Shown here: in pieces, positions 6,628-45,104 of the stretch
How the letters are laid out: every line of letters begins with the position of its first letter
Numbering within the stretch: position 1 is the first letter of the stretch
Sequence record: PZ445406.1
DNA from: a phage
Length of the DNA stretch: 47,149 nt
Reading direction: 5' to 3' (one strand)
Position numbers and translations under genes: made by a program
The notes under the pieces: generated by a model
Databases searched by the model: none
The model's input: the letters and a program-made list of their open reading frames with translations, nothing else
What the model was told of the DNA's origin: nothing

Positions 6628-6671
6628 CATAGCACTTTTTGATAAAGCGTTAATTCAATCTTCCTGTATAG
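6628..6671 (+). promoter_or_regulatory. phage-type promoter module
   Basis: ATAGCAC-N4-TTGATA, 22-bp spacer, TATAGT; leader CATCTAAACGAAA follows. Confidence 0.5.
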
Positions 6672-6705
6672 TTAACTCATCTAAACGAAATGAGAGATTA
6701 AAGAA

Positions 6706-6954
6706 ATGAATAACGTTAAAAACATCATCAAACTTACTGCGGTTCTTGTTGCTTTTTATGCAGTGGTTCAGATTGTTAACCCAACTAGCGAGGCTGATGC
6801 CAGCAGCAAGGTAAATAAATATACTGTTGAATTTGCTAAGGCTGAGAGAGCATGTCAGGAGCTTGTAGGAGGAAAAGTTGACCAAATCATGAAATATGGC
6901 AAAGAGGTTTGTAAGGACTCGGCTGCTAAGATTGCAAAAGAAAACACTAAGTAA
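6706..6954 (+). CDS. small secreted protein (signal peptide, moron-like)
   Basis: N-terminal hydrophobic signal with ADA/SS cleavage-like site; own phage-type promoter after a terminator. Confidence 0.5.
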   Translation: MNNVKNIIKLTAVLVAFYAVVQIVNPTSEADASSKVNKYTVEFAKAERACQELVGGKVDQIMKYGKEVCKDSAAKIAKENTK

Positions 6955-6993
6955 TAGAATACATACTCACAAACAATAAGAGGATTAACTAAG

Positions 6994-7308
6994 ATGGCAA
7001 AGTTCAAACTTTCACTGGCGGCACTGCCAGACTTCAAGCTACCAGTAAAATTCAAACTGGCTAACGACCAGGATGTAGAGGTTATTTTTACAGTTAAGCA
7101 CAAGAAGACCTCTGAGCTTCAGGAGTTACTACAGAAAGAAGACCTGAGTACTAAAGAATTGATTATGGCAATCGCCTCTGATTGGGACTTGGAAGAGGAA
7201 TACAACGAAGATAACGTCAATGAGTTCTCCGACCTGTTCCCTGCTTCAACTGTAGCGCTAACTACCGCTTACATGCAGGCGCTTGCTGGTCAGCGAGTAA
7301 AAAACTAA
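6994..7308 (+). CDS. tail assembly chaperone (lambda G-like)
   Basis: Position between major tail and tape measure genes; slippery A AAA AAC at its 3' end. Confidence 0.6.
   Translation: MAKFKLSLAALPDFKLPVKFKLANDQDVEVIFTVKHKKTSELQELLQKEDLSTKELIMAIASDWDLEEEYNEDNVNEFSDLFPASTVALTTAYMQALAGQRVKN
7299..7305 (+). promoter_or_regulatory. -1 programmed ribosomal frameshift slippery site
   Basis: A AAA AAC in X XXY YYZ register, one codon before chaperone stop; -1 frame open to 7616. Confidence 0.6.
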
Positions 7309-7616
7309 AACGAGCGGTGTATCTTCAGTACCAGTCAGAGCCAACAGATGCCGAACTGGAAGCTATTGGGATGCGCCGCTCTGATTACGAAGGTGAAGAG
7401 CCTGAAGTTTTACACTTCGATGACAACATGATGAAGGCGTGGGACATTTATTGTTCAATGGCTACACAGTGGCGAGTCGGAGTTAACGGAGCTACAGGAC
7501 TTGATTACAACGTGCTAAATTTCCTCTTTAGAGTGTATAATGTTTCTGAAGAAGAATTGGTGCTCAGCGATTTACGCATCCTTGAAGCTAAGGCTCTTGA
7601 GATGATGAAAACCTGA
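7299..7616 (+). CDS. tail assembly chaperone frameshift extension (lambda GT-like, -1 PRF)
   Basis: -1 frame open from slippery heptamer 7299-7305 to 7616; acidic extension typical of T domain. Confidence 0.55.
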   Translation, partial: KKLKRAVYLQYQSEPTDAELEAIGMRRSDYEGEEPEVLHFDDNMMKAWDIYCSMATQWRVGVNGATGLDYNVLNFLFRVYNVSEEELVLSDLRILEAKALEMMKT

Positions 7617-7627
7617 GAAAAAAAATA

Positions 7628-7647
7628 ACCCGCTTCGGCGGGTTTTC
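7628..7647 (+). terminator. terminator or attenuator before tape measure gene
   Basis: ACCCGC-ttcg-GCGGGT hairpin plus TTTT. Confidence 0.45.
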
Positions 7648-7663
7648 TATTATGGAGGCTTAG

Positions 7664-10639
7664 ATGGCAACAAATGAATTAGCCGGAATCACGCTAGCCG
7701 TAGACGTATCGCAGGTAGATAGGGGAACGCAATCCCTACAGAAGTTCAGGCAGGCTAACCAACAGGCCGCTTCCGGGATTAGTGAATTCATAAACGCTGA
7801 GCAGGTTGCTAAAAACCAGGCGAGAGATACAGCTCGCGCACTTGCTGAGCAACAGGCATCACTGGCTAAGCTGCAAACTGCGATTGATCCAACTGCGGCA
7901 AAGTTCCGTAAGCTGCAAGAGGCGGCCGTAGGTCTTGATAAGGCGTTCGCTGCTGGCGTAGTTCCTGATGAGGAATTTTTCCGATTAGGTGAGGCTCTTG
8001 AAACGCAGAATGCAAAACTTGCGCGTTCACGCGCAGCTTTAACCGAGGAGGGGAGGGCGGCGGCTCAAGCGGCAAAGGAGAAAGCGGCAGCAAAAGCAGC
8101 AGCGGATAGATTTATCGCATCACTTGAGCGACAAGCTCAAGCTGCGACGCTGACTCGTGAGGAGTACTTAAAGCTACAGGCTGCACAGCTTGGTGTTAGT
8201 TCTCAGGCTGCGCCTATTATTGACAGAATCGCTGAGGCTTCAGAGCGAGCAAATGTTCAATTAGCAAACCAAAGCAAGGCTTTTCAGAAGTCCGGGCTAA
8301 GTGCCGGGCAATACAAGAACGCCATTAGCCAACTGCCAGCACAGATTACAGATATTGGAACATCACTTGCTGGTGGCATTCCGATTTGGCTTATTGCAAT
8401 TCAGCAGGGCGGACAAATTAAGGATGCATTCGGAGGTATTGGTAACACATTTAGATTCGCGCTGGCTGCACTAAACCATTTTAATGTTGCTGTTGGCGTT
8501 TTGGGAGGCGCACTCGTCGCTCTCGGTATTGGCGCGGCTCAGGCTGAAAGTGAATTCAGGGCATTGAACTCTGCCATTGCATTCTCAAACAACTCGACAA
8601 TCACTTCAATCTCGCAAATTAGACAGTTGGTTAGCTCTGTTTCTGACGCTACCGGCGCCACCAGAGGACTGGTAACCAGCATCGCAACAAGCCTTGTTGA
8701 GCAAGGAAACCTTACGCTAACGCAGATTGATAAGATTACTAAATCAACAGCAAGATGGGCGCAGTTGACAGGTAAGGATGCAAAGGAGATTACTGGTTAC
8801 TACAACCAGATTGCAAGCGACCCAATCCAGGGTTTAGTTGACTTGGATAAGCGCTTTAACTTCCTCACACAGGGGCAGCTGACGACAATCGAAAACCTGA
8901 GAAAGACAAAGGGGGAGGTCGAGGCCGTTACCGCCGCGATTGATATTTTCAGCAAGTCGCAGGAAGCCAACCTTAACGACATTGCAGCTCAATTAACTCC
9001 ACTTGAGTTAGCATGGAATGACTTCAAGAAGTACATCTCTGATGTCTGGGATGCAATTAGCCGTAGAACACTAGGTGCTTTAAACCTGTTTGTTGACGTA
9101 ATAGCAGGAACAATTGAGCAAATCAGGGTCTTCCTTAACCAGGGTGACGTTCTGATTGGTGAATTCGTAATCAGCGCAACTCAGGCATTGCAGAACATAC
9201 CTGGCCTTGATGGTGTTGGTGATGATGTTATCAAGGGGCAGCAGAAGATTATCGATGCCGCCAAGAAGCAAAACCTTGAGCTAGAGAAGTCCATCAGGGA
9301 GCGAGATGCCAGAATCAGAGAGGGAGAGCTTGGTTACGTTAATCGCAGAGAGAATCAGAATACCAATGAGCAATCAGGGACCGATGAGGAATTCGCAAAA
9401 AGGAAGAAGGCACTTCAGGATGAGCTTGACGCGATCAAGAAAAACAGGAAAGAGGAAAATGGGAGGGTTAATGAGCAAAGGGATTTAACAATAGGTTATG
9501 AATCTGGCGTTCTGGCACTTCAGGCTCAACTCAAGGTTCTTCAGGAAAATCGGGATATTGGCGCAGTAATAAGCAATGAGCGCAAGCAGTATCTTCAGGA
9601 GGAGGCTAAATTCAGGATCCTTGAGCAGAGGCAGCTTGATGGCTCGATTACCAAAGAGCAAGCGAGACTTATCGTTGAAAAGGACAAAGTTCTTGAGTTG
9701 GCCAAGCAGAAGGCTGAACTAGGTGATCAGATTGTTTTGCAGGAGCGCGCCAATAAGTTAGCTGAAGATAACCGCAAGAAGATTCTTCAGATTAACAATG
9801 AGGCAAATAACATTGATTTAGGCGCTGGATTGTCATCTCGAGAGCAGCAGAGAGCCAAAGAGATTCAGGCCCTCCAGTCCAATCAGGTTAATGCTGGTGG
9901 CGCACTTGATGACGTGGATTTTCAGCAACTCCTCGAAGCAAGACGCAACTTTTACGCTCAGGAGGATGCGCTACGTGAAAACTGGCTCGCTGGCGTGAAT
10001 CAATCCTTTGCCAATTGGGCTGAGAGCGCTAAGGATGCATTCTCAATTGCTGGAAGTTTAACCACAACAGTCTTTGAGGGCATTACCGACCAGATTACAA
10101 ACCTTGTAACAACTGGCGAGACAAACTTCAGGGAGTTTACTGTAAGCATCCTTAAGCAGATTGCTAAGATTGCGGCTCAGCTTCTTGTTGTCAAGGCAAT
10201 TGAGTCTAGCTTAAGTAGCTTCGGTGGCACTGGTGGCGCTATTGGTTCAATTGCCTCAGCTATAGGTTTTGCTGGTGGCGGCTACACTGGTGATGGCGGG
10301 AAGTATCAGCCAGCAGGAACCGTACACCGCGGTGAGTTTGTATTCACAAAAGAAGCAACAAGCCGAATTGGTGTTAAGAACCTTTACGCGCTAATGAAGG
10401 GATACGCAAACGGTGGCGCTGTAGGTGGTCCATCTGGTTATGCTAATGGCGGTTTGGTTTCTGGTGGGTCAGATGTTAATGTTAGTGGCATCACCGTTAA
10501 CGTTAATGGTGGCGTTGGTAGCGACCCAGAACAGGCCAAGGCATTGCAGAGTGGCGTTAAGGCTATCGTTGCGGAAGAAATTGCTCAGTCTTTCCAGCAG
10601 GGTGGAAAAGCGTATGCCTACCTGAGGGGCTTTAACTAA
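7664..10639 (+). CDS. tail tape measure protein
   Basis: 991 aa, Ala/Gln-rich coiled coils, Gly-rich C-terminus; position after chaperone. Confidence 0.8.
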
Positions 10640-10682
10640 TAGCACTAAATGGTAAAGCCAAAAGGATTTGGCTTGCTATAAT
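10639..10682 (+). promoter_or_regulatory. phage-type promoter module (drives HNH 10711)
   Basis: ATAGCAC-taaa-TGGTAA, 22-bp spacer, TATAAT; tape measure stop abuts TAGCAC. Confidence 0.5.
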
Positions 10683-10710
10683 CAACTCATTAAAACTGTG
10701 AGGTGATAAA

Positions 10711-11187
10711 ATGAACTGGAATGATATTTTCGATTATAGGGATGGTGTTCTTTATTGGAAGATAAGTCCGAGGTCAAGAACCCCAATCGGATCAGTTGCC
10801 GGACATTTATCAAAGGCTGGCTATATAACAACGTCATACATGAAGAGGGCTCTTCTTGCCCATAGGGTTGTGTGGGAAATGCATAACGGACCAATACCAG
10901 AAGGAATGCAGATAGACCACATAAATCACAACAGAAGTGATAACAGGATTTGCAATTTAAGACTTGCTACTGTTTTTGATAACAATCAAAACATGAGCAG
11001 AGGTAAGGGAAATAGAAGTGGCGTTGTTGGTGTTAGCTGGCATAAGAGCGCAAAAAAGTGGTGCGCTGAGATTCATGCGAATGGCAAAAAGAAATACCTC
11101 GGCGTGTTTGATAGTTTTGATGATGCGGTTCTCGCTAGAAAGAGCGCAGAGTTACATTTTGGTTTTCATGAAAATCACGGAGCATAA
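10711..11187 (+). CDS. HNH homing endonuclease (HNH plus AP2-like domain)
   Basis: HINHNRSDNR motif then AP2-like GVSWHKSAKKW; free-standing with own promoter between tape measure and M genes. Confidence 0.75.
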   Translation: MNWNDIFDYRDGVLYWKISPRSRTPIGSVAGHLSKAGYITTSYMKRALLAHRVVWEMHNGPIPEGMQIDHINHNRSDNRICNLRLATVFDNNQNMSRGKGNRSGVVGVSWHKSAKKWCAEIHANGKKKYLGVFDSFDDAVLARKSAELHFGFHENHGA

Positions 11188-13698: not shown

Positions 13699-16600
13699 AT
13701 GGCACAAATGATCAAAACAAACGTGAGGCTTTGTGATATGGCTGAAGAGATTAAGATTTATGGTGCTAAAGGCGGTAGCCAGAAGCAGCATCAACCAGTG
13801 GAGCAGGAAGATAACCTTATTTCACTTAACAAGGTTAAGGTATTGCTTGCGGTTGCTGACGGAGAGGTGGATCCAAACTTCTCAATGAAGGATTTATACC
13901 TTGCTGACGTTCCGGTGCAAAACCAGGATGGTAGCTACAACTACGAAGGTGTTCGCGCTGAGTTCCGTGCTGGCACGCAGTATCAGGACTATATCGCTGG
14001 CCTTGATGGTGCAAACTCAGAGATTCAGGCATCCAGAGAAATCACGAACGATACCCCGTATATCATCGCGGTTAACAATACTCAGCTATCAGCAATTCGA
14101 GTTAAGCTATTTTGGCCTCGACTAGTTAAGCAAGAAAGTAACGGCGACCTGAACGGTACGACATGTGAGTATGCAATTGACCTATCTGTTAATGGTGGAG
14201 TATATCAGGAATACACTCGCGGAGTTGCTAACGGTAAGACAACTACAGGTTACGACCGCAGCATTCGTGTCAACCTTCCGGCAGAGTTTGATAGCGCACT
14301 GGTTCGAATCCGTAAGATTACGCCAGACTCAACTAGTAGCACGCTGGTCAACGGAATGCAGATTACAACCTATCAGGAAGTAATCGACGCTAAATTCCGC
14401 TATCCGCTTACCGCCCTGGTTTATGTTGAGTTTGGCTCTGACTTGTTCCCTAACGGAATCCCAACAATTTCTATAAAGAAGCGCTGGAAGTTGATTCAGG
14501 TACCGACAAACTACGACCCGGAGACGAGAACTTACAGCGGGACATGGAATGGACTGTTCAAAATGGCATGGTCAAACAACCCAGCTTGGGTTCTTTATGA
14601 CTTAGTGACAAACCGCCGATATGGTCTTGACCAGCGAGAACTAGGTGTAGAGATTGATAAGTGGGGTCTTTACGAGGCTGCGCAATTCTGCGACCAGATG
14701 GTGCCGGATGGTAAGGGTGGTTTAGAGCCTCGTTATCTTTGCGATATGGTTGTACAGAACAAGGTTGAGGCCTACACGCTAATTCGTGATATCTGTTCAA
14801 TCTTCCGTGGTCTGACTTTCTATGATGGAGAAAAGATTGGCATCGTAGTTGATAAGCCTCGTAATCCATCATACATCTTCACGAATGATAACGTTGTAAA
14901 CGGATTGTTCAGCCGCACCTTTGCCAGTGATAAGAGTCTTTACACCACTGCAAACGTTCAGTTTGATGATGTTGAGAACAACTATCAGCAGGATGTTGAG
15001 CCAGTTTTTGAACTCGAGGCTACTCGAAGATTTGGCTTTAACCCTGTTGACCTCACGGCTATTGGCTGTACTCGCAGAAGTGAGGCAAACAGGCGCGGCA
15101 GGTGGCTCCTAAAAACCAACCTGAGAAGCGAAACTATCAGCTTCACTACCGGGTTGGAAGGTATGATTCCGATGGTTGGCGAGGTAATTGCGGTCAATGA
15201 CGCTGCATGGTCGAGCAACTATCAGTTAAACCTTTCTGGTCGCATTGAATCAGTTCAGGGATTGCAGGTTTTCACCCCTTTTAAAGTTGACGCAGCGCCT
15301 GGTGACAGAATTCTTCTGAACAAGCCAGACGGAAGTCCAGAGGCAAGAACTATTGCCAGCGTTTCGGAGGATGGAAGAACAATCAACCTTAACACTGCTT
15401 TTAGTTTTGTAGCTCAACCTGACACTGTTTTCGCAATCGATAAGGATAATATCGCGCTTCAACAGTATGTTGTGACCGGGATTCAAAAAGCAGACTCTGA
15501 TGGTTCGGATTCATTTCAGTATACGATTACAGCAGTAGAGTATGACCCGAACAAGTATGACGAGATTGACTACGGGGTTAACATTGTTGACCGTCCAACT
15601 TCAATTGTGGAACCTGACAGATTGTCGCCGCCCGAGAACTTAACAGTATCAAGCTACAGTAAGGTTGTTCAGGGTTTGTCGGTTGAGACGATGGTTATCG
15701 GATGGGATAAAGCGCCATACGCTAAAACATACAATGTTCAGTGGAGAAAAGAAAATGGCAACTGGATTAACGTACCCAGAACAGCAAGTACAGAGGTTGA
15801 TATTGAGGGCATTTACGCAGGAATCTATGACGTTAGGGTTCGCAGCGTATCAGATACTGAAAACGTATCTGCCTGGTCTGACATTGTAACGGTATCGCTA
15901 ACTGGCAAGATTGGTCGCCCATCTGCGCCTACGGTTATCACGGCTTCAACTGATGAGGTATTTGGAATTCGTGTTAAGTGGGGTTTCCCTGAAGGATCCG
16001 GTGACACTGCTTACACTGAACTTCAGCAGGTCGCTGATAATGGTGACGGCACTTACAATCCTGATAACGCAAGTTTGCTTACGTTACTGCCGTACCCAGC
16101 ATATGAATACTGGCACACGCCAATTCAGCCAGGAAAGGTTATCTGGTATCGCGCTAGATTGATCGACAGAATAGGTAATACCTCTGATTGGTCTGACTTT
16201 GCTAGAGGTATGAGCACTGACGATGCCAACATCATCAACGATTACATCAAAGTTGATATTGAAGGCTCAGAAGGATTCAAATATCTCGAGCAGAATGCGA
16301 TTCAAAAGAATCAGGACATTCAGAATCAAGCTGAGGCAATTATCGAGAACGCATTAGCTAATGACACTGATGTTCGTCGCATGACTAAGGAGAACGGAAA
16401 ACGTAAGGCTGAATATGTTCAGGCAGTGAATCTCATAGCTGATGAAACTCAGGCGCGTGTGGAGGCTCTCACGGCCCTTAAAGCACAGATAGATGATGAG
16501 ATTGTTGGTCAGATTACGACTATTGAAACGGCGCTGGCTACAGAGACTGAAGCTAGAGCTACGGCTGACACTCAGCTATCAGCAAGGATTGGTGATAACG

Positions 16601-18303: not shown

Positions 18304-18342
18304 TTTTAAGTCCTTATTAAGTTTTCTCGTTTCGATGTGGTA

Positions 18343-18386
18343 ATGATAACTCATCCCTGCGGATTGTCTTTAGCAATTCGTGCTAT
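18343..18386 (-). promoter_or_regulatory. phage-type promoter module (drives lipoprotein gene)
   Basis: Minus strand ATAGCACGAATTGCTA, 22-bp spacer, TATCAT, leader CCACATCGAAACGAG. Confidence 0.5.
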
Positions 18387-19059: not shown

Positions 19060-19442
19060 TTTACAATCCTCTCTCGTTGTTTGTGCGACTAACTATACCA
19101 GGTTTTGCGTCTGAGTTTTAGCTATTCGTGCTATTGCATACACGTAACAGATGTAACTTGATGTATACAATCTAATCCGCGGAAAATGATATACGCCAAG
19201 TTACGCATGGTTACGCTATATTTACATTAAAATATCTATATATATCAACCATTTACTCTTATTATTATTATTATATATATTACTGTGTATATCATGTAAC
19301 TACCTCTATAGAGTGTTCCGGTTGCAATTTTAATATCATGTGGATTTATACAGTGTTGCACGGTGCTATACCAATGCACCCTCAGCAATAAATGATATAC
19401 ACGATATACACACTAGTTACATTGAGCTATAGCTGATCTGAG
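19060..19442. repeat. AT-rich divergent control region A with iterons and (TTA)5 microsatellite
   Basis: No credible ORF; tandem GATATACAC x2 at 19394-19411; (TTA)5 at 19259-19273; 19-mer ATATCTATATATATCAACC at 19232-19250 shared with region B. Confidence 0.6.
19092..19134 (-). promoter_or_regulatory. phage-type promoter module (leftward from region A)
   Basis: Minus strand ATAGCACGAATAGCTA, 21-22 bp spacer, TATAGT. Confidence 0.5.
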
Positions 19443-19787
19443 GTGCCAGAAAACGTAACTAGTGGCAATGCATACATGGAATTACAAGAATTCACACGTA
19501 AACTTAATAAATTGATAGGCACAAACGATTGGATTCCAGCAAGCCACGCGGATATAGTTAACCCATCGAAAGCAAGCAACCAAATAGATACGAAAATGGG
19601 AAAGAAAATAGATAGATACTCAGCTCACACCGTAATACTACCCAGCTATGCTCCGGTTTTTATTGGTGTAACTTACGAAGTGGCTCTTAGATTATGCGAG
19701 TCATCATATGGTAAAGACTGGAAAAACAAATCAATTAGAATAGAGAAGACAACTAGAGAACATATCAAAATCATCGCGGGGGTATAA
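19443..19787 (+). CDS. hypothetical protein
   Basis: First ORF rightward of control region A; start ambiguous (GTG 19443 or ATG 19476). Confidence 0.4.
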   Translation: MPENVTSGNAYMELQEFTRKLNKLIGTNDWIPASHADIVNPSKASNQIDTKMGKKIDRYSAHTVILPSYAPVFIGVTYEVALRLCESSYGKDWKNKSIRIEKTTREHIKIIAGV

Positions 19788-21418: not shown

Positions 21419-21462
21419 ATAGCACTTTTTGTTAAAACGAAATTAATGTTTTTCGTTATAGT
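21419..21462 (+). promoter_or_regulatory. phage-type promoter module
   Basis: ATAGCAC-tttt-TTGTTA, 22-bp spacer, TATAGT; overlaps dam stop. Confidence 0.5.
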
Positions 21463-21494
21463 TAAAGAACACAAGAAAACAATGGGGGTTAGTC

Positions 21495-25504: not shown

Positions 25505-25522
25505 ATAGCACGATTTGCTAAA
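25505..25522. promoter_or_regulatory. isolated copy of the TAGCAC/TGCTA palindrome (operator-like)
   Basis: ATAGCACGATTTGCTAAA between primase terminator and tail fiber start, with no matching -10 at the usual spacing. Confidence 0.35.
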
Positions 25523-25546
25523 GTTGATTGTAGCATCTTTAGGGCA

Positions 25547-25570
25547 TAAAAAAACCTCCCGAAGGAGGTT
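25547..25570 (-). terminator. intrinsic terminator after primase (minus strand)
   Basis: ACCTCC-cgaa-GGAGGT hairpin with A7 on plus strand (T7 on minus). Confidence 0.55.
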
Positions 25571-26492: not shown

Positions 26493-26550
26493 ATCAGTCT
26501 ATCTCTTAACAAATAAAAAAGGATGTACCGATTATGGCACATCCAATTCT

Positions 26551-27024
26551 TTACTCTTTAGCTTTTCGTGCTGCTTCGTTGGCGGCCTTGATCTTGCGCC
26601 ATGATCGACACTCTGGCTTGGTGGCTAATTCAGCCTCAGTAACAACGCGCAGCATGTGACGTTTTTTGCATCGTAGTGTAAGCGGTTTTCCGTTACCGTC
26701 GAATTGCAGGTCCGGTCGACAGAATGTAGCGCGAAAACCTTCCCCAGTTCGTTTGTAGTAGTTATGCGACAGTTGAGCGCCACGTGCAGAAATCATACCA
26801 CGCTTAAACCATTCTTCCACGGCCTGAGGAGTTACCTTTAGCTGCTTTGCGATATTCGCCTTTGTGCCGAAGAAATCAAGTAGCATCTCAAGCCGCGCAC
26901 GTAGCCCTGCCCTTACTTCATCTTTTAAAACGTAGTAGCCTGAAGGTCGTTTGCGCTTCTTTTTGTCTTCAGTGCGGACGGTTCCGTTATTCCCGTTAAT
27001 GGTTCGCTTGTCTACTGCATTCAT
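26551..27024 (-). CDS. HTH DNA-binding protein (candidate transcriptional regulator)
   Basis: Basic protein with Cro-like segment IAKQLKVTPQAVEEWFKRG; divergent from helicase promoter. Confidence 0.5.
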   Translation of the reverse strand: MNAVDKRTINGNNGTVRTEDKKKRKRPSGYYVLKDEVRAGLRARLEMLLDFFGTKANIAKQLKVTPQAVEEWFKRGMISARGAQLSHNYYKRTGEGFRATFCRPDLQFDGNGKPLTLRCKKRHMLRVVTEAELATKPECRSWRKIKAANEAARKAKE

Positions 27025-27036: not shown

Positions 27037-27080
27037 ATAGCATTTTTTGTTAAAAGTCATTCTGGTTTAATGGTATTATT
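27037..27080 (+). promoter_or_regulatory. phage-type promoter module (drives helicase)
   Basis: ATAGCAT-tttt-TTGTTA, 21-22 bp spacer, TATTAT. Confidence 0.45.
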
Positions 27081-27106
27081 GTAATCAATTAAACGCTACA
27101 AGACAA
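27078..27106 (-). promoter_or_regulatory. sigma70-like promoter for HTH gene 26551-27024
   Basis: Minus strand TTGTCT, 17-bp spacer, TACAAT; overlaps helicase promoter back-to-back. Confidence 0.4.
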
Positions 27107-29121: not shown

Positions 29122-29541
29122 ATGAAAATTACAGATAAGGTTGATTACATTGAGTTTTACCCAGGCCCTGTTAATTCATGCCCTAAAGAGGATGACGAAC
29201 AAATCTTTTGCTCTGATTGGGTTAAGTATAACTATCCAGACATGGTGTTTTTCCACTGCGTGAATGAGGGTAAGAAAACAATTGGACAAGCAAGAAAAGA
29301 CCAGGCTAAGGGTTTATTGAAGGGCGTATCTGACTGCATGTTTCTGATACCTGAATCTATCCGAGGCAAATACCCTTTCGGAGCCATAGAGCTAAAGAGG
29401 GCAGGAAAAACACAGGCAAGCCCAGTCAGTGACGAACAGAAGTCCTTCCTGAAAAGCGTAAGAGAATCAGGCGGCTTCGCGGCTGTAGCCTATGGTCGCG
29501 AGGGTTTTCTGGCAGCATTCAAAGAAATGATTTCAAAATAG
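29122..29541 (+). CDS. VRR-NUC-like PD-(D/E)XK nuclease
   Basis: D...ELK signature (SDCMF...IELKRAGK); GGAGGA SD. Confidence 0.5.
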   Translation: MKITDKVDYIEFYPGPVNSCPKEDDEQIFCSDWVKYNYPDMVFFHCVNEGKKTIGQARKDQAKGLLKGVSDCMFLIPESIRGKYPFGAIELKRAGKTQASPVSDEQKSFLKSVRESGGFAAVAYGREGFLAAFKEMISK

Positions 29542-29581
29542 CACGAATTGCTAAAGGTATTTCGCAGGGATGCGATATAGT
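29538..29581 (+). promoter_or_regulatory. phage-type promoter module
   Basis: ATAGCACGAATTGCTA, 22-bp spacer, TATAGT, leader TTACCCCATCGAAACGAAA. Confidence 0.55.
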
Positions 29582-29619
29582 TACCCCATCGAAACGAAAC
29601 ACTAAAAGAGAGAAACAAA

Positions 29620-29863: not shown

Positions 29864-29907
29864 ATAGCACGAATTGCTAAACTATGACGCATGGAAGCGT
29901 GTATTAT
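29864..29907 (+). promoter_or_regulatory. phage-type promoter module (duplicated copy)
   Basis: ATAGCACGAATTGCTA, 22-bp spacer, TATTAT. Confidence 0.55.
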
Positions 29908-29940
29908 CAACTCATCGAAAAGAAACTAGGAGAGAAAAAA

Positions 29941-30510: not shown

Positions 30511-30692
30511 TTGGCATCTGCGTAAAAACGAATGGGCAATTTACACTACTCGAGGATTACGAAATCAACTCTCATTCAGATGAGGTAACAGTGTTTAGCG
30601 ATGATGGATGCTATTGGTTCCTTAGTTATCAAGGTGATGGCTACTACGGATGCATTGATTCAAACGGAAAAGAAGTTAGTTTCTTAGTCTAA
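30507..30692 (+). CDS. hypothetical protein
   Basis: ATG 30507 with GGAGGA SD (track start 30489 is TTG). Confidence 0.45.
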   Translation: MIGICVKTNGQFTLLEDYEINSHSDEVTVFSDDGCYWFLSYQGDGYYGCIDSNGKEVSFLV

Positions 30693-30735
30693 TAGCACTT
30701 TTTGTTAAAACTAAAATCCACGGATGGATTATATT
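30692..30735 (+). promoter_or_regulatory. phage-type promoter module
   Basis: ATAGCAC-tttt-TTGTTA, 22-bp spacer, TATATT. Confidence 0.5.
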
Positions 30736-30767
30736 AAGCACATAAACAACGCAGAGGATTTTGAATA

Positions 30768-31475: not shown

Positions 31476-32606
31476 ATGGCAACCGCAAAAATCACCAACG
31501 AACAATTGCGCGAAGAGTTAGCAAATGGCATGACCAACAAGGCAATCGCAGAGAAGTACGGAATGAACATTCGCAACGTTGAATTGCGTCGCAGTAAATT
31601 AGCTAAACAAGGCGAAGGGCATGGTCGCGATGTAAGCAACTTAATCCCTCAGGGCTATGCAGTTAAAGGCGTCTCCAGCTTAATTGGTGCTGATGGCGAG
31701 ATTAAGCAACAGTGGGTTAAATCAGATATCGACAAGGAGAAGCAAGAAGAGATGATGCTTCAGGCAATTCAGGCCCTAACTGATGAGTTGCCGCGTGAGA
31801 AAGCTAAAGCTTTAAGGGTTGGTTTATGGGAAGATACTTTAAGCCTTTACCCCGTGTTCGACCTCCACATTGGAGCAATGGCTCATCATGCTGAGTGTGG
31901 TGAGAACTATAGTACTGAAATCGCTGAGAGAGTTCTTAATGATTACTTTGATTACGCGGTTGCAAAGGCCCCCAACTCCAAGAAAGCTGTATTGCTGATT
32001 GGGGGTGACTTCCTTCACTCTGACGGAATGGAAGCGGTAACACCAACCAGTCGTCATGTTCTTGATCAAGATAGCCGTTATCACAAACTTGTTTACGTAG
32101 CAGTGCGAGCGACACGTCGAGCAATTAGCCGTATGCTTGATAAGCACGCCGAGGTTGAGGTTCAGATTATTCCAGGTAACCACGATCTCTCAGGTATGAT
32201 TTGGCTTCGTGCTGCAATGGCAGCTTTCTATATGGATGAGCCTCGAGTTAATGTTGATGCGTCCCCCGCTGCGCTTCACGTAACGCAATTTGGGAAGACG
32301 CTGCTTGGTTACTGCCATGGGCACGAACTCAAAAAGCCTGATACCCGACTATCAGCACTGGCTCGTGACCATCGCAAAGCATTTGGTGAATCAGAGTATG
32401 TTTACACCCATTCAGGCCACTATCACCATCAAACTATTACGGAAGGAAATCTGGGTATTGATGAATCACACGGCCAGCTTGGAGCGAAAGATGCGTACAG
32501 TGCTAACGGAGGTTATCGCTCTTACCGACAGGCTTCGGTGATAATTTATAGTCCTGAGTTTGGTGAGATTGGACGATTTACTTGCCGCCCGGAAATGTTT
32601 AGTTAA
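31476..32606 (+). CDS. calcineurin-like metallophosphoesterase with N-terminal HTH-like segment
   Basis: DLHIG, GGDFLHSDG and IPGNHD motifs in phosphoesterase order; HTH-like KAIAEKYGMNIRNVELRRSKL. Confidence 0.5.
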   Translation: MATAKITNEQLREELANGMTNKAIAEKYGMNIRNVELRRSKLAKQGEGHGRDVSNLIPQGYAVKGVSSLIGADGEIKQQWVKSDIDKEKQEEMMLQAIQALTDELPREKAKALRVGLWEDTLSLYPVFDLHIGAMAHHAECGENYSTEIAERVLNDYFDYAVAKAPNSKKAVLLIGGDFLHSDGMEAVTPTSRHVLDQDSRYHKLVYVAVRATRRAISRMLDKHAEVEVQIIPGNHDLSGMIWLRAAMAAFYMDEPRVNVDASPAALHVTQFGKTLLGYCHGHELKKPDTRLSALARDHRKAFGESEYVYTHSGHYHHQTITEGNLGIDESHGQLGAKDAYSANGGYRSYRQASVIIYSPEFGEIGRFTCRPEMFS

Positions 32607-32649
32607 TAGCACTTTTTGCCTAACGCATGCCGTAGAAATGCGGCATAAT
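32606..32649 (+). promoter_or_regulatory. phage-type promoter module
   Basis: ATAGCAC-tttt-TTGCCT, 22-bp spacer, CATAAT, leader TACCACATCGAAACGAAA. Confidence 0.5.
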
Positions 32650-32690
32650 TACCACATCGAAACGAAATGAACTAAACGAGGAAACACAAA

Positions 32691-36001: not shown

Positions 36002-36075
36002 TACTTCTCTCCGTATTGTTTTTGAGAGGCCATTATATCAACGACCTCTTATAAAGCATTATCAATTTGTGCTAT

Positions 36076-36784: not shown

Positions 36785-36814
36785 TTTTCGTACCCCTCCC
36801 GTTTCGATGAGATT

Positions 36815-36858
36815 AATATACAGGAAAAGCCCCTAAGGGCTTTAGCAATTCGTGCTAT
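36815..36858 (-). promoter_or_regulatory. phage-type promoter module with terminator hairpin in its spacer
   Basis: Minus strand ATAGCACGAATTGCTA, 22-bp spacer containing AGCCCTTAGGGGCT hairpin, TATATT. Confidence 0.5.
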
Positions 36859-37931: not shown

Positions 37932-37964
37932 TTATTTCTCCTTTCCTCTCGTTTCTAGGACTGA

Positions 37965-38009
37965 ATCATAGCAACCAACCACTGATAGGTCATTAGCAAA
38001 AAGTGCTAT
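37965..38009 (-). promoter_or_regulatory. phage-type promoter module (leftward from region B)
   Basis: Minus strand ATAGCAC-tttt-TGCTAA, 22-bp spacer, TATGAT. Confidence 0.5.
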
Positions 38010-38569
38010 TCGTTAGATTTATGGATTGTTGCAGATATTGAAATTATTATCATGATTATTGCACATATAGCAATATTGCTTCAGATGCAATGATGTTTTT
38101 GATTGTTGCGGATTGAGCAATGAAGTGGTGGGGGAGTGAATGAAAGATGGATGGACTAACATACAAGTTGATTTTGACTCCCGATAACCTATCCTGTGGT
38201 ATACACGTAACCGCCGTATACTCAGTGTCGTCACAAAAGTTAGTGGACACTAACCTACGTTTTTTACGCCAATATACACTCGATATACAATATAATATCT
38301 ATATATATCAACCTTTTACTTTATTATTATTATTATTATTATATATATGTATACCGTGTATACCGGTCATGGATGGAATAGTTGATATGTTCCGCGCAGA
38401 TATTCTGACACTTGTCAGAAAGGGATGACATTGTAGGAATAAAAAGGCACATATATAGGAAATATCCTCAAAAATCTGTACACAGTGGATACGGCAGGTT
38501 TACAACCAGTGCCGGAGCGGGCTTGAGAGGCAAAATGCGTATCCATGATAAAATATACTAAAATATACA

Positions 38570-38598
38570 TTGACCGACACGTAAATAGGTGGCAATAT
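38570..38598 (+). promoter_or_regulatory. sigma70-like promoter (rightward from region B)
   Basis: TTGACC, 17-18 bp spacer, CAATAT/AATATA; leader CACTGAAACGAAG follows. Confidence 0.4.
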
Positions 38599-38638
38599 AG
38601 CAATCACTGAAACGAAGTAAACCAAACGAGGTATTAAC

Positions 38639-39187: not shown

Positions 39188-39714
39188 TGTTTGATTTCAA
39201 CGAAGAAAAGCTGACAGATGAGCAGGTCATGAGTATTGCGAAGCAGGATGGGATTCCCCCGCTACGGGTTGCAATCAATGCAAACGGGTATCGTCATGTT
39301 CAACACCTCTGGAGTCATCCTGATGCGTCATCAATCCACAAGGGTGAGGCTGTTGAGGTTCTGCTGACAGCGATAAGGACTGAATCTATAGCTCGCAGGG
39401 GAGTTGTTGGCTTACAGAAGTCTTATGACCTAATTAGGAAGCTAAAGAGGTTTAAAGGTGACAATGACGGGCTAATGGAGAGGATTAAGGACGAAATGAT
39501 TCCAGAGCTAGAGAAAGCGAATCTCGTTTGCCTCATTGGAGATAAGATTTATGTCCACCCGGCTATCATTGAGGAGTCCTGGCAACCCAACTTCAAAACT
39601 TACGAAGGTGATCACACTAGTAGACTACCATACCACTTGCGGTACAGTGAGGCGGAGGTGGAAGAGGCTATTGAGTTCTACCGGAAGACTAAATCACTCC
39701 TGAATGGCGAATAG
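39187..39714 (+). CDS. hypothetical protein sharing N- and C-termini with the 34418-36001 ATPase
   Basis: First ~40 aa and last ~30 aa align with the 527-aa protein; central domain absent. Confidence 0.5.
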   Translation: MFDFNEEKLTDEQVMSIAKQDGIPPLRVAINANGYRHVQHLWSHPDASSIHKGEAVEVLLTAIRTESIARRGVVGLQKSYDLIRKLKRFKGDNDGLMERIKDEMIPELEKANLVCLIGDKIYVHPAIIEESWQPNFKTYEGDHTSRLPYHLRYSEAEVEEAIEFYRKTKSLLNGE

Positions 39715-39754
39715 CACGAATTGCTAAACAATGGATCGGGTAGTCAGCTATGAT
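39711..39754 (+). promoter_or_regulatory. phage-type promoter module
   Basis: ATAGCACGAATTGCTA, 22-bp spacer, TATGAT. Confidence 0.5.
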
Positions 39755-39784
39755 TACCCTATCAACAACGAAGAGGAAATGAAG

Positions 39785-39994: not shown

Positions 39995-40254
39995 AACGTT
40001 TAATGACATGCATGACCATTATTGCGGCAATTATTGCTCTTACTGGTTGCGAGAAAGCACCGGAGGTTCAGATTCAGTCAGGTGAATTCAATGTGGAGCG
40101 TCTATTCACAGTGGATGGATGTACCGCCTACCGATTCCGAGATAGCGGTAAAGCCGTCTACTACACAAATTGCCATGGCAGTACGCAGAGTGAGTACAAG
40201 TCCGGCAAGGTCACGAAACAAGAAATAGTTCAGACAAATCGCACGAATTGGTAA
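39991..40254 (+). CDS. small lipoprotein (early-expressed; candidate exclusion or envelope effector)
   Basis: Signal peptide with lipobox LTGC; ATGA overlap with upstream gene. Confidence 0.5.
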   Translation: MKRLMTCMTIIAAIIALTGCEKAPEVQIQSGEFNVERLFTVDGCTAYRFRDSGKAVYYTNCHGSTQSEYKSGKVTKQEIVQTNRTNW

Positions 40255-40281
40255 AAGGGGATTCATCCTGACTGGTATAAT
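40238..40281 (+). promoter_or_regulatory. phage-type promoter module (variant)
   Basis: ATCGCACGAATTGGTA, 22-bp spacer, TATAAT. Confidence 0.45.
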
Positions 40282-40436
40282 CCAACGCATCAACCAAATG
40301 AATGGAAGTTAAGTGACGATATACGAACATAAATTCAGTAGCAGGGGTATTGATATGCTCCTGCACTATGTAGACGAAAAATACGCAAAGCTAATGCTTA
40401 AGACGCATGGCGGCACAATAACGAGGATTAACATAA

Positions 40437-41054: not shown

Positions 41055-41098
41055 ATAGCACGAATTGCTAAACCAGCTCCGGCGGGTTCTGTTATAGT
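41055..41098 (+). promoter_or_regulatory. phage-type promoter module
   Basis: ATAGCACGAATTGCTA, 22-bp spacer, TATAGT. Confidence 0.55.
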
Positions 41099-41127
41099 TA
41101 GTTCACACCAAACGAGAGGAAAGATAA

Positions 41128-41548: not shown

Positions 41549-41691
41549 TTTACATCCACACTTACTACACTGGCAAGTTCAATAGCGTTAAGCACGTTCG
41601 GGTTTATGAGGATTTTAAAGAAGCATTCAAGCAGCAGGAGGTTCTTGGTGGAGTTGTCCAGGAATGTGAAATTCTAGAAGAATACAAATAG
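41545..41691 (+). CDS. hypothetical 48-aa protein
   Basis: ATGA overlap; stop TAG is part of next promoter TAGCAC; not in ORF track. Confidence 0.35.
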   Translation: MIYIHTYYTGKFNSVKHVRVYEDFKEAFKQQEVLGGVVQECEILEEYK

Positions 41692-41731
41692 CACTAATTG
41701 TTAAAACAACATTGGGGTAATTTGATATAGT
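41688..41731 (+). promoter_or_regulatory. phage-type promoter module
   Basis: ATAGCAC-taat-TGTTAA, 22-bp spacer, TATAGT, leader TTACCCCATCGAAACGAA. Confidence 0.55.
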
Positions 41732-41761
41732 TACCCCATCGAAACGAATGAGGACAAACAG

Positions 41762-42494: not shown

Positions 42495-42633
42495 ATACGT
42501 TATCGCATGTGAACGACTGGTCTTTGATATGAAGACTTTTCACTGGTTCATCATTAAGGATTTGATTAAGCCTTATAAGCAGGGTGTGACACCTGAGGCA
42601 TTTATCAAGAACTTCTATAGCACTAAAAGCTAA
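42481..42633 (+). CDS. hypothetical 50-aa protein
   Basis: GAGGTGG SD; 3' end overlaps next phage-type promoter. Confidence 0.35.
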   Translation: MSFTEYVIACERLVFDMKTFHWFIIKDLIKPYKQGVTPEAFIKNFYSTKS

Positions 42634-42660
42634 ACGCAGTCGCCAGGGATGGCATATAAT
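42617..42660 (+). promoter_or_regulatory. phage-type promoter module (variant)
   Basis: ATAGCAC-taaa-AGCTAA, 21-22 bp spacer, TATAAT, leader TACCCCATCAACACAACGAG. Confidence 0.45.
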
Positions 42661-42690
42661 TACCCCATCAACACAACGAGAGACTGAGAA

Positions 42691-43485: not shown

Positions 43486-43563
43486 GCTCTGCTAGCTCAA
43501 CAGGACAGCAGCAACGACCTTCTAAGTCGTAGGTTACTGGTTCGAATCCAGTGCGGAGCGCCA
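43486..43563 (+). tRNA. tRNA-Arg (anticodon UCU)
   Basis: Hand-folded cloverleaf: 7-bp acceptor with one GU, anticodon arm ACGAC/CTTCTAA/GTCGT with U33 and A37, T-arm with GGTTCGAATCC, encoded CCA. Confidence 0.7.
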
Positions 43564-44067: not shown

Positions 44068-44077
44068 CGTCTGTATG

Positions 44078-44106: not shown

Positions 44107-44147
44107 TAACTCATCGGGGCGACCCACTAACCAGAAGGAGATTCAAA

Positions 44148-44387
44148 ATGATTACATTAAAAGCAATTCACAAAGATGGTAGCGAGCAGGTTTTTGAAGT
44201 TAAGAACTTCGGCCACAGAGCAATGCAGAACCGGATTGATGCTGTTGATTGTGATCGCGAGCCATTCAGTATTTACCTTAATGATGACTCGGTTGTCGTT
44301 GTGTACGCAATGAATTCGGCGGGTTCAACTGTTGGCAAGTACTTTTATTTTGATTCAGCAGGAGCCCGAGAAGATTACATATCTTAA
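44148..44387 (+). CDS. hypothetical protein
   Basis: sigma70-like promoter, AAGGAG SD, terminator downstream. Confidence 0.5.
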   Translation: MITLKAIHKDGSEQVFEVKNFGHRAMQNRIDAVDCDREPFSIYLNDDSVVVVYAMNSAGSTVGKYFYFDSAGAREDYIS

Positions 44388-44392
44388 AGCAT

Positions 44393-44415
44393 AGCCCCTT
44401 AATTGGGGCTTTTTT
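44393..44415 (+). terminator. intrinsic terminator
   Basis: AGCCCC-ttaatt-GGGGCT hairpin plus T6. Confidence 0.65.
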
Positions 44416-44436
44416 ACGTCTGCAGTATGGTATAAT
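44408..44436 (+). promoter_or_regulatory. extended -10 promoter for membrane peptide gene
   Basis: TGgTATAAT directly after terminator; weak -35. Confidence 0.4.
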
Positions 44437-44460
44437 CTGACCTCAAGAAAGGAGGATTTA

Positions 44461-44553
44461 ATGCATAATATTATTGCTACAATTATCTTTGGTGCCACTT
44501 GCCTATCATTTATCCTTGGCGTGGTATGGTTACTAACTTTATTGGGGTTTTAA
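44461..44553 (+). CDS. 30-aa hydrophobic membrane peptide (MHNIIATIIFGATCLSFILGVVWLLTLLGF)
   Basis: Extended -10 promoter and AAGGAGG SD 7 nt upstream; not in ORF track. Confidence 0.4.
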   Translation: MHNIIATIIFGATCLSFILGVVWLLTLLGF

Positions 44554-44557
44554 TGAC

Positions 44558-45064
44558 ATGAGCAAAGCAGCATTAAAGATGGGTGAGGGAAATTTCAAGG
44601 CACTCTACAACAAGAAGTATGGCGATATTGCTATGGTGGCAATCAACCGTAAGTATACGCCTGAGGAGGTTTTCGATTTCGCAGTGAGATACTTCTCCTG
44701 GGCTGAGGGTGAGGCAATTAAAGCCATTGAGACGGCGGCATTCCGGGGTGTGGTTAGTGAGAGCTTAGTGCACAAGCCTAGAGTGTTCACATTAACCGGC
44801 CTGGCACTATTCATGGGTGTTAACATCAATAGATTCGCTCGTTGGCGTGCTGAGGCTGGATACTCTGACGTGATGGAATTCATTGATAACGTAATCTACG
44901 AACAGAAATATCAGCTCTGCGTTGCAGGCATTATCAACTCCACCATTGTTGGTAAAGAGCTTGGCATTGATAAGCCGCAGGAGATCACCATTAGCAACAA
45001 CTCCACAGCCAACGACGTTGATAGCATGAAGGAAGCGCTTGAGTCTGTTATTGGTAAGTTGTAG
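44558..45064 (+). CDS. terminase small subunit (putative)
   Basis: 168 aa; position upstream of terL with an HNH gene between; call by synteny only. Confidence 0.45.
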   Translation: MSKAALKMGEGNFKALYNKKYGDIAMVAINRKYTPEEVFDFAVRYFSWAEGEAIKAIETAAFRGVVSESLVHKPRVFTLTGLALFMGVNINRFARWRAEAGYSDVMEFIDNVIYEQKYQLCVAGIINSTIVGKELGIDKPQEITISNNSTANDVDSMKEALESVIGKL

Positions 45065-45104
45065 CACTTATTGTTAAAAGAAGAGCCCCAATCAGTGAGA
45101 TAAT
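45061..45104 (+). promoter_or_regulatory. phage-type promoter module (drives HNH 45133)
   Basis: TAGCAC-ttat-TGTTAA, 22-bp spacer, GATAAT; terS stop TAG is part of TAGCAC. Confidence 0.45.

Follow-up and report, generated by a model that had tools for sequence, protein, structure and literature searches.

Predicted class II-type promoters recur about twenty times in Escherichia phage JeanPiccard and carry a box matching the host marbox

Where does transcription begin in a T1-like phage, and what reads the element that recurs in front of its genes? The question is raised by a 47,149-bp stretch of phage DNA (sequence record PZ445406.1; the whole stretch is called the window here), in which a composite element recurs on both strands between positions 6628 and 45104. 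An earlier note on this DNA described the element as a palindromic box, a long fixed spacer, a TATAGT-like hexamer and, often, a leader, and took it for a phage-specific promoter family of non-canonical architecture. At 100% identity, the window matches Escherichia phage JeanPiccard (MZ501080.1, listed as Bas02 in the BASEL collection), a virulent T1/Rtp-like siphovirus of the Drexlerviridae, subfamily Braunvirinae. It is the complete genome, rotated, such that a window position equals the MZ501080.1 record position minus 2592; 83 protein genes and one tRNA are annotated. Drexlerviridae are among the commonest coliphages and Klebsiella phages and are present in therapy collections. Published annotations give about three sigma-70 promoters per genome plus an unexplained 21-nt repeat, and the literature yielded neither transcription start sites nor transcriptomes from the family. 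As set out below, the elements are very probably class II-type, activator-dependent, extended -10 sigma-70 promoters, and their box agrees with the marbox of host promoters.

Copies of the box were counted with a position weight matrix (PWM) built from 75 seed sites in five Drexlerviridae genomes (JeanPiccard, T1, Klebsiella phage KP1801 (Webervirus), Salmonella phage GS166 (Tlsvirus) and Yersinia phage YP10S2), with a cut-off of at least 8 bits and with shuffled sequences as controls. Twenty sites were found in the window compared with 0.3 in shuffles, the first at 6629 and the last at 45061-45111, in agreement with the span reported before. Two additional, degenerate copies lie at 26531-26573 (-), as the primase promoter, and at 19515-19565 (+). 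The earlier count of at least 18 copies holds. The earlier note had also proposed scanning related genomes. T1, KP1801, GS166, YP10S2 and two phages added later, Vibrio phage Vc1 and Pseudomonas phage Motto, all carry 14-21 copies. The sequence of the box, on the other hand, needed correction. ATAGCAC-N4-TTGCTA, as first written, gave a single match at ≤2 mismatches, its gap being off by one base. The corrected box is ATAGCAC-N3-TTGnTAAA, and TAGCAC-N3-TTGnTAA has 26 matches in the window at ≤2 mismatches, compared with 5.5 ± 2.5 in shuffles. A logo of 86 promoters gave, for the left half, A(-2) 78%, A(-1) 95%, T 95%, A 99%, G 99%, C 100%, A 100% and C 93%, then n-W-W; and for the right half T 97%, T 94%, G 99%, Y, T 95%, A 98%, A 100%, A 95% and A 63%.

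All 20 boxes point in the same direction as the next gene on their strand. In 18 of them the annotated start codon lies at +71 to +88 from the box, with a typical distance of ∼75 nt. The two exceptions are an orphan box before a terminator (25505) and a site where the annotated start lies inside the promoter and a better ATG is found at +73 (39711). Stop codons of upstream genes are indeed built into the motif, as noticed before: 14 of the 20 copies have such a codon in or against the box, be it the TAG of TAGCAC (four copies), the TAA of TTGCTAA (four) or a TAA 1-2 nt before the box (six).

A -10-like hexamer follows at a nearly fixed distance. Measured from the T of TAGCAC, the hexamer begins at 37 nt in 82 of 95 boxes from the five genomes; the distance is 36 nt in seven boxes and 38 nt in six. 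The offset of 37 nt places it 22 bp after TTGCTA, in line with the 21-22 bp spacer claimed earlier. TATAGT is the most frequent hexamer (19 of 95), ahead of TATTAT (15), CATAAT (10) and others. Conservation across the 86 promoters is T 81%, A 100%, T 87%, a, a, T 99%, and this profile, with its near-invariant A2 and T6, is a sigma-70 signature. Moreover, TG occupies positions -15/-14 in 54 of 115 promoters (47%) versus a background of 6.8%, and G-14 is present in 92 of the 115 (80%). The hallmarks of an extended -10, TGn before the hexamer and conserved A2/T6, are thus present, with the full TG in about half of the sites.

A -35 element is another matter. In the same 115 promoters, best-match scores against TTGACA, taken 16-18 bp before the -10, averaged 2.52/6 versus 2.50 at random positions, and matches of ≥4/6 occurred in 6% of promoters versus 13.7% at random positions. 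The distance of 22 bp to the -10 makes TTGCTA itself unusable as a -35, and the match at 16-18 bp is no better than random; the earlier argument that 22 bp is too long for a sigma-70 pair was sound. Downstream of the -10 comes a C-rich discriminator and then, seven nt after the hexamer, a conserved A (81%) that is likely the start site. The leader claimed earlier also recurs: TTACCCCATCGAAACGAA has 6 matches in the window at ≤3 mismatches versus 0.02 expected, and a weaker consensus, tacCcCATcgAAACgA, spans all sites. An Rfam search of the entire window returned the tRNA as sole match, so this conserved leader is not a known RNA family.

The earlier view of these elements as promoters is supported, and we assign them with high confidence to the class II-type, activator-dependent, extended -10 sigma-70 promoters. 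The upstream element was rightly seen as an activator site in kind, as it sits at the class II activator position, centred at ∼-40. To call the architecture non-canonical was an overstatement, since an extended -10 core with an activator site over the -35 position is a known class. Canonical sigma-70 promoters were also considered as the transcription source and were rejected: the segment 27150-47149 holds 37 consensus-like sites versus 38.1 expected.

The repeat itself has been described. A 2024 re-annotation of phage TLS reported a 21-nt direct repeat, aaATAGCACnnnTTGnTAAAA, in 21 copies (DR1-DR21) oriented with transcription and ∼76 nt upstream of start codons; it was also found in T1, Rtp and Rogue1, its function was left open (stoperators, enhancer sites or UP elements), and only three sigma-70-like promoters were found in TLS (PMC11447400). 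Our consensus from 86 sites is identical to this repeat and represents the same element. As published, the repeat had no link to a fixed-distance -10, a missing -35, a leader or a marbox (PMC11447400). What is new here is that the already published repeat is tied to each of these.

Must an activator be invoked at all? RNA polymerase might contact the box directly, through an UP-element-like site for the C-terminal domain of the alpha subunit (alpha-CTD) or through TTGCTA as a displaced -35, with no extra protein. UP elements are mentioned in the TLS paper (PMC11447400), and the flanks of the box are A-rich. Retention of the box in phages of very different reported hosts, which have alike polymerases, would be accounted for as well. 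However, by the established geometry of sigma-70 promoters, TTGCTA at 22 bp from the -10 lies 5 bp, or half a helical turn, beyond the reach of sigma region 4. UP elements, moreover, are A/T tracts at -40 to -60 without invariant G/C, whereas the most conserved positions of the box are G, C, A, C and G; the box was rejected as an UP element on this ground. We consider direct contact by polymerase very improbable. Consensus sequences for IHF, CRP, DnaA and the UP element, compared by eye, gave no fit.

A second possibility is that the extended -10 promoters are constitutive and the box is a negative element, which would either bind a phage repressor as operator or stoperator or act as a roadblock that stops early and middle transcription late in infection. 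TG is strongly enriched, and a TG-extended -10 can work without a -35. Stoperators were suggested by the TLS authors (PMC11447400). A Cro-like protein, encoded by JeanPiccard (see below), is the classic shut-off factor, and the major capsid promoter of T1, GS166, YP10S2, Vc1 and Motto has a reversed box between its -35 and -10, a repressing position. But a repressor gives no reason for a fixed distance (82 of 95 sites) and orientation upstream of the core of the polymerase footprint. The full TG is present in 47% only, and many -10s are weak (CATAAT, TATCAT, TAAAGT) and would make poor promoters unaided. Stoperators of mycobacteriophage L5 lie inside transcribed regions, not at -41. They are scattered with no fixed relation to a -10, and a stoperator of this type was rejected for the box. 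We regard a purely negative role as improbable. Compared with known extended -10 promoters, the phage sites share TG at -15/-14, the invariant A2/T6 and the missing -35; they differ in that the full TG is found in about half and that all carry an upstream box at fixed distance.

Activator boxes that replace a -35 are known from other phages. In T4 middle promoters (MotA box plus AsiA), the sigma-70 -10 is retained, as here. The centre of the MotA box is near -30, and 11-13 bp separate box and -10. The JeanPiccard box has a different sequence and ends 18 bp (counted as a 20-mer) or 20 bp (as a 15-mer) before the -10, ∼10 bp farther than the MotA box, and a T4-type middle promoter was rejected. 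Neither MotA nor AsiA appeared among the Pfam matches of ten conserved or early proteins (which include no DNA-binding domain), with no search aimed at MotA or AsiA. The lambda promoters PRE and PI also have no functional -35 and an activator site, that of CII, straddling the -35 region. CII binds a direct repeat, TTGC-N6-TTGC, and serves 3 promoters in a temperate phage, whereas here ∼20 promoters run most genes of a virulent phage.

What kind of protein, then, would bind the box? The earlier note pointed to an imperfect palindrome, TAGCA/TGCTA, and these inner arms are real (5-bp arms, 5-bp gap). Yet the symmetry breaks at conserved positions: A is found at -1 in 95% and at +15 in 100%, C5 (93%) stands opposite T9 (97%), and G2 (99%) stands opposite a variable base. 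The polarity of this asymmetry relative to the -10 is constant at every site. Because it is positions with 93-100% conservation that depart from symmetry, with one and the same polarity each time, the palindrome is probably not the functional unit. Such fixed asymmetry would be expected of a monomer with two different reading heads, not of a symmetric dimer. A symmetric operator of the Cro/CI type, flanks included, was rejected on the asymmetry at -1/+15, +5/+9 and G2.

An asymmetric site of this kind is known in the host. The E. coli marbox, the binding site of MarA, SoxS and Rob, has a consensus from chromatin immunoprecipitation sequencing, GCAnnWWnTGnnAAA, that is explicitly non-palindromic, and at class II promoters the marbox is in forward orientation and overlaps the -35 (PMC12052159). 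A marbox is made up of an A site GCAC, 7 bp and a B site YAAA. Exact matches to the consensus number 17 in the 47 kb of the window, versus 1.17 ± 1.24 in shuffles, and the phage box accounts for 15 of them. Among the 86 promoters, conservation at the positions specified by the marbox is 99-100% for G, C and A, 94-99% for TG and 95-100% for AAA. Of 16 strongly conserved box positions, 14 are specified or allowed by the marbox consensus, the extra ones being A1 and T9. An older 20-mer consensus gave 15 matches at ≤1 mismatch versus 1.0 expected. MarA-type proteins read CACN, 7 bp and AAA by means of a pair of helix-turn-helix (HTH) motifs (PMC8811837); the phage counterpart is CACG-AATTGCT-AAA. 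Between the marbox of mar itself, CCACGTTTTGCTAAA, and the phage consensus, 2 of 15 positions are different.

Geometry agrees as well. In the MG1655 genome, micF has GCACTGAATGTCAAA, 20 nt and TAGAAT, and fumC has GCACGAAAGACCAAA, 19 nt and AATAAT. Of 95 phage sites, 82 have 20 nt between marbox and -10, seven have 19 nt and six have 21 nt. With predicted starts that place the hexamer at -12 to -7, the phage 15-mer spans ∼-47 to -33. It thus overlaps the -35 with its centre at ∼-41, and every box has the forward orientation with respect to its -10 and gene. In terms of sequence, orientation and spacing, the phage box agrees with host class II promoters. We estimate that a marbox match together with micF geometry would arise by coincidence in ∼1 in 1,000 to 1 in 2,000 cases, allowing for the alignments and motifs considered. 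Like the E. coli class II marbox promoters (micF, fumC, inaA, lpxC P2), the phage promoters have the consensus in forward orientation, the -10 distance, no usable -35, and an asymmetric A site plus B site one helical turn apart. They differ in being far closer to consensus and denser (∼1 per 2.4 kb, ∼15-fold over chance), in being sharpened at A1 and T9, in combining the box with a TG-extended -10 and a conserved transcribed leader, and in occurring also in phages reported on Pseudomonas and Vibrio. No papers linking the marbox to T1-like phages were found in the literature. Of the earlier description as a phage-specific promoter family, the family stands, whereas 'phage-specific' is doubtful for a box that fits the host's marbox consensus exactly and shares its spacing and orientation with micF.

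These similarities lead us to propose, tentatively and at slightly less than even confidence, that the activator at the box is host Rob, MarA or SoxS. Host RNA polymerase would recognize the extended -10 (TGnTAtaaT). In place of a -35 hexamer stands an asymmetric box of 19-20 bp, with its centre ∼40 bp upstream of the predicted start. By sequence the box is a consensus marbox (A site GCAC, 7 bp, B site TAAA), forward and 20 nt from the -10 as at micF. A monomeric activator of the MarA/SoxS/Rob family, with two HTH motifs, would bind it, contact alpha-CTD and sigma region 4, and recruit polymerase as at micF. Class II complexes of Rob, SoxS and RamA solved by cryogenic electron microscopy use micF, and in them the activator, at ∼-41.5, makes contact with alpha-CTD and pushes sigma region 4 off the -35. 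Activators of this family are encoded by E. coli, Klebsiella, Salmonella and Yersinia, and the box is invariant in the phages of these four hosts. The reader would be constitutive Rob in unstressed E. coli, MarA or SoxS under antibiotic or oxidative stress, and RamA in Klebsiella. Expression of Rob is constitutive and high (PMC9178005). Some twenty promoters of this kind, each directly after the preceding stop codon, would drive replication genes, small accessory genes and homing endonucleases, with a transcribed leader, (A)TCGAAACGA, running into the Shine-Dalgarno (SD) sequence.

Several observations weigh against a host reader. A1 and T9 are strongly conserved box positions that the marbox consensus does not call for. 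Unstressed cells contain little MarA or SoxS, and most Rob is described as being sequestered until induction; yet the growth of T1-like phages in ordinary broth is vigorous. To our knowledge, soxS and marA are confined to enterics. Yet Pseudomonas phage Motto has 18 intact boxes and Vibrio phage Vc1 has 15. Motto is reported to form plaques on P. aeruginosa (64% of isolates) and not on the E. coli strains tested (PMC10978715). Finally, JeanPiccard encodes a regulator, discussed below, that is universal in the family and has its own -35/-10 promoter overlapping a box promoter, so the logic of the genome fits a phage activator. In non-enteric hosts, either another factor reads the box or the extended -10 suffices. 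Vc1 and Motto are 85% identical T1-like phages, both reported on non-enteric hosts, V. cholerae and P. aeruginosa respectively. Deviations from the box specific to one of the two number 14 in Vc1 versus 4 in Motto, a difference that is not significant, three of the pairs being paralogue mismatches. Several -10s of Vc1 are damaged (CAAAAT, TCTGAT). We also considered host range as a discriminator between a host and a phage factor; it does not decide between them, because boxes are kept in phages reported on Pseudomonas and Vibrio. A scan of IMG/VR found boxes clustered, several per contig, on T1-like contigs of 45-52 kb.

The chief alternative to host Rob/MarA/SoxS is an activator encoded by the phage, most plausibly bas02_0036, the product of the gene at 26551-27024 that the earlier note had singled out as a possible binder. 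It would be made first from a canonical promoter, bind the boxes at ∼-41 and switch them on, and shut off its own promoter, which faces the box promoter of the helicase gene; likeness to the marbox would then be convergence or mimicry. The protein gives a weak P22_Cro match (aa 48-72) and no match in a PDB sequence search. Its AlphaFold (AF2) model (predicted local distance difference test, 89) has a core resembling Xfaso1 Cro and N15 Cro, the top structural matches. The model suggests a single-HTH Cro-like protein of the kind that binds symmetric operators as a dimer. Homologues are present in 830 phage records (Drexlerviridae-like), and among the core proteins this is the only recognizable phage-encoded transcription factor conserved across the family.

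Promoter arrangement also favors a role for the regulator at the boxes. Its gene has one of the few sigma-70-like promoters, and the -10 (TACAAT, - strand) overlaps the -10 of the helicase box promoter (TATTAT, 27074-27079, +) by 2 bp, face to face. The helicase box adjoins the SD and start codon of the divergent regulator gene and lies in its 5' leader. The same overlap is found in six other phages, making seven, and equals the published P57/DR11 pair of TLS. It would make a simple switch: the regulator first, then box promoters on and the regulator's own promoter off. An inverted repeat of 5 + 5 bp with half-sites one helical turn apart is typical of Cro-type operators, and boxes are intact in a phage reported on P. 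aeruginosa. But a single Cro-type HTH normally binds as a symmetric dimer, whereas the box is asymmetric, with constant direction, at positions conserved at 93-100%. The recognition helix (aa 66-75) varies between phages with an identical box, only W72 being nearly invariant, and a host reader conserved across Enterobacterales would explain how the box can stay the same while this helix changes. An exact marbox match with micF spacing and orientation would, in addition, have to be the rare coincidence estimated above. A phage activator is in our judgment unlikely, with bas02_0036 still a candidate for binding the box and no longer the favorite. The most conserved parts of the protein lie outside the HTH, in a disordered basic N-terminal arm (DKRTxNGNNGTxRGxDKKxRKRP) and a C-terminal segment, GFRA..CRPD..FD.NG...RC, which has no structural match. 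Under the host-activator proposal, the regulator, made from a canonical promoter facing a box promoter, would probably modulate, for example by competing at the pseudo-palindromic box, and would not be the primary activator.

Other phage-encoded readers were sought. Six-frame open reading frames (ORFs) of the five genomes contained no homologue of MarA, SoxS or Rob better than E = 0.1 by phmmer and a small hidden Markov model of MarA, SoxS and the N-terminal domain of Rob; on this basis a phage-encoded MarA-like activator of the AraC family was rejected. Pfam found no DNA-binding domain in ten other conserved or early proteins; only VRR-NUC and DUF7174 were found.

The class II assignment explains where most transcription would start and makes ∼20 promoters per genome annotatable by rule. 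A broader proposal is that T1-like phages run nearly all early and middle transcription via class II marboxes, hijacking MarA/SoxS/Rob (RamA) as a ready-made co-sigma factor. We consider this possible and rather doubtful. If it is true, phage expression would be coupled to bile, antibiotic and oxidative stress, and replicating phage DNA would titrate the activators away from efflux and porin genes. Dilution of a fixed activator pool over thousands of boxes could act as a copy-number timer that turns early promoters down, and would also free the reversed-box major capsid promoter of relatives such as T1 and the TLS-like phages; competition from the Cro-like protein would take place at the palindromic portion of the box. 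A link to the multidrug efflux/porin regulon would bear on phage-antibiotic combinations, infection in the bile-rich gut and host range. Should the activator instead be a phage protein, a Cro-like protein would have converged on marbox geometry, a case of mimicry.

The 18-bp spacer between box and -10 is variable in sequence and often has dyad symmetry, of two kinds. In one, a GC-rich hairpin lies within the spacer and the T-rich -10 could serve as U-tract, as in the terminator-like AGCCCCTTAGGGGCTTTT at 36808-36858. In the other, the arms embrace the -10, as in GGGGTA..TATAGT..TACCCC at 41688-41738. Further examples in the window are 21419-21469 and 30692-30742, and dyads are also found in T1, KP1801, GS166, YP10S2, Vc1 and Motto. 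When each spacer was paired with the segment after its own -10, the longest stem averaged 4.70 bp, compared with 3.72 ± 0.095 bp for permuted partners, and stems of ≥6 bp were found in 34% versus 4.7%. Across the seven genomes the stem excess has a z-score of 11.7. Arm sequences vary between promoters while complementarity is kept, and the two members of one orthologous pair differ by a double compensatory change (CCGC..GCGG to CCCC..GGGG). On the sense strand, the excess grows more when G.T pairs are admitted than when A.C pairs are, and mismatches there are mostly G.T. This difference points to structure in sense-strand RNA, and we infer that the dyads fold in read-through transcripts from upstream. 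The spacer hairpins may be terminators or 3' stabilizers packed inside the next promoter.

Coordinates of the individual sites are collected in Table 1.

Table 1. Predicted box promoters and associated features of the window. Offset is the distance from the T of TAGCAC to the hexamer; start is the position of the start codon relative to the box
Feature	Coordinates (strand)	Box	-10 (with TGn)	Leader	PWM score (bits)	Offset (nt)	Start	Remarks
Promoter upstream of bas02_0014	6629..6679 (+)	ATAGCACTTTTTGATAAAGC	TATAGT	TAACTCATCTAAACGAA	24.5	37	+76	After terminator of major tail gene
Promoter of bas02_0018, homing endonuclease	10639..10689 (+)	ATAGCACTAAATGGTAAAGC	TGc TATAAT		17.5		+71	Tape-measure gene stop ends 1 nt upstream of box
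Promoter of bas02_0025	18336..18386 (-)	ATAGCACGAATTGCTAAAGA	TATCAT	TACCACATCGAAACGAG	30.1			TAA of TTGCTAA is Dcm methylase gene stop
Promoter of bas02_0026, Dcm-like methyltransferase	19085..19134 (-)	ATAGCACGAATAGCTAAAAC	TGg TATAGT		25.3	36	+74	
Degenerate copy	19515..19565 (+)	ATAGGCACAAACGATTGGAT (decayed)	TATAGT (intact)	TAACCCATCGAAAGCAA				Usual distance; inside annotated bas02_0027
Promoter of bas02_0031	21419..21469 (+)	ATAGCACTTTTTGTTAAAAC	TATAGT		33.6		+75	Spacer hairpin ACGAAA..TTTCGT
Orphan box	25505..25554 (+)	ATAGCACGATTTGCTAAAGT	GGCATAAA (weak)		29.8			
Weak variant upstream of primase gene	26531..26573 (-)	CAGCACGAAAAGCTAAAGA	CATAAT					20 nt between box and -10; 1-mismatch marbox match; overlaps 3' end and stop codon of regulator gene
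Cro-like HTH regulator bas02_0036 (157 aa)	26551..27024 (-)							
Promoter of bas02_0037, DNA helicase	27037..27086 (+)	ATAGCATTTTTTGTTAAAAG	TGg TATTAT		28.8	36		
Regulator gene promoter, canonical sigma-70-like	27078..27106 (-)		TACAAT					TTGTCT, 17 bp before -10
Promoter of bas02_0039 (archetype)	29538..29588 (+)	ATAGCACGAATTGCTAAAGG	TATAGT	TACCCCATCGAAACGAA	30.1			Box TAG is bas02_0038 stop
Promoter of bas02_0040	29864..29914 (+)	ATAGCACGAATTGCTAAACT	TATTAT		28.7		+75	
Promoter of bas02_0044	30692..30742 (+)	ATAGCACTTTTTGTTAAAAC	TATATT		33.2		+75	Spacer hairpin ATCCA..TGGAT
Promoter of bas02_0048	32606..32656 (+)	ATAGCACTTTTTGCCTAACG	CATAAT	TACCACATCGAAACGAA	18.6		+84	
Promoter of bas02_0053, putative helicase	36025..36075 (-)	ATAGCACAAATTGATAATGC	TGa TATAAT		20.5		+73	
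Promoter of bas02_0056	36808..36858 (-)	ATAGCACGAATTGCTAAAGC	TATATT		32.7			Box TAA is bas02_0057 stop
Promoter of bas02_0061	37958..38009 (-)	ATAGCACTTTTTGCTAATGA	TGc TATGAT		27.8	38	+77	
Box-less relative upstream of bas02_0062	38570..38609 (+)		TATAGC	AATCACTGAAACGAAG (leader-like)				TTGACC; found by eye only
Promoter upstream of bas02_0064	39711..39761 (+)	ATAGCACGAATTGCTAAACA	TATGAT		29.5			Box TAG is bas02_0063 stop; ATG with SD at +73
Promoter of bas02_0066	40238..40288 (+)	ATCGCACGAATTGGTAAAAG	TGg TATAAT		18.6		+74	
Promoter of bas02_0068	41055..41105 (+)	ATAGCACGAATTGCTAAACC	TGt TATAGT		32.7		+72	
Promoter of bas02_0071	41688..41738 (+)	ATAGCACTAATTGTTAAAAC	TGa TATAGT	TACCCCATCGAAACGAA	32.9			7-bp dyad; arms GGGGTA/TACCCC on either side of -10
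Promoter of bas02_0076	42617..42667 (+)	ATAGCACTAAAAGCTAAACG	TATAAT	TACCCCATCAACACAAC	12.2		+73	
Promoter of bas02_0002, homing endonuclease	45061..45111 (+)	GTAGCACTTATTGTTAAAAG	TGa GATAAT		22.1			Box TAG is small terminase stop

Just upstream of the major capsid gene, the relatives have a promoter close to consensus (TTGACG, 16 bp, TGcTATTAT), of which the reversed box forms the spacer and TG. This reversed box was found in T1 (∼15060-15140), GS166 (∼13700-13780), YP10S2 (∼30930-31010) and Vc1/Motto (∼5700-5775), and in all five a terminator-like hairpin follows in the leader. In JeanPiccard (2930-2975) the reversed box is degenerate, and a terminator lies upstream of the capsid promoter. 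A protein bound at the box would repress the reversed-box, late promoter. The late structural block has almost no box promoters apart from those of two homing endonuclease genes (10639-11187, after the tape-measure gene, and 45061-45609, after the small terminase gene), each of which has its own.

The orphan box lies between the convergently placed tail fiber and primase genes. It runs straight into a hairpin-plus-T-run terminator (25505-25575), and the next gene on its strand is 1620 nt away; it may give a very short transcript or be a remnant. The annotated ORFs of bas02_0064 (start at 39731) and bas02_0027 (19443) take in the -10 and leader of a box promoter. In-frame ATGs with an SD are found at ∼39785 and ∼19605, respectively, and the annotated starts are probably too far upstream. 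A 700-bp gene-free region (37932-38638) separates divergent gene blocks and contains repeated GATTGTTGC, several GTATAC-containing repeats, a (TAT)n run and, before bas02_0062, the box-less site, which is possibly an activator-independent early promoter by its sequence. The region may be an origin, a seat of activator-independent early promoters, or both. The tRNA gene, tRNA-Arg (AGA, as annotated), lies at 43486-43560 amid small early genes.

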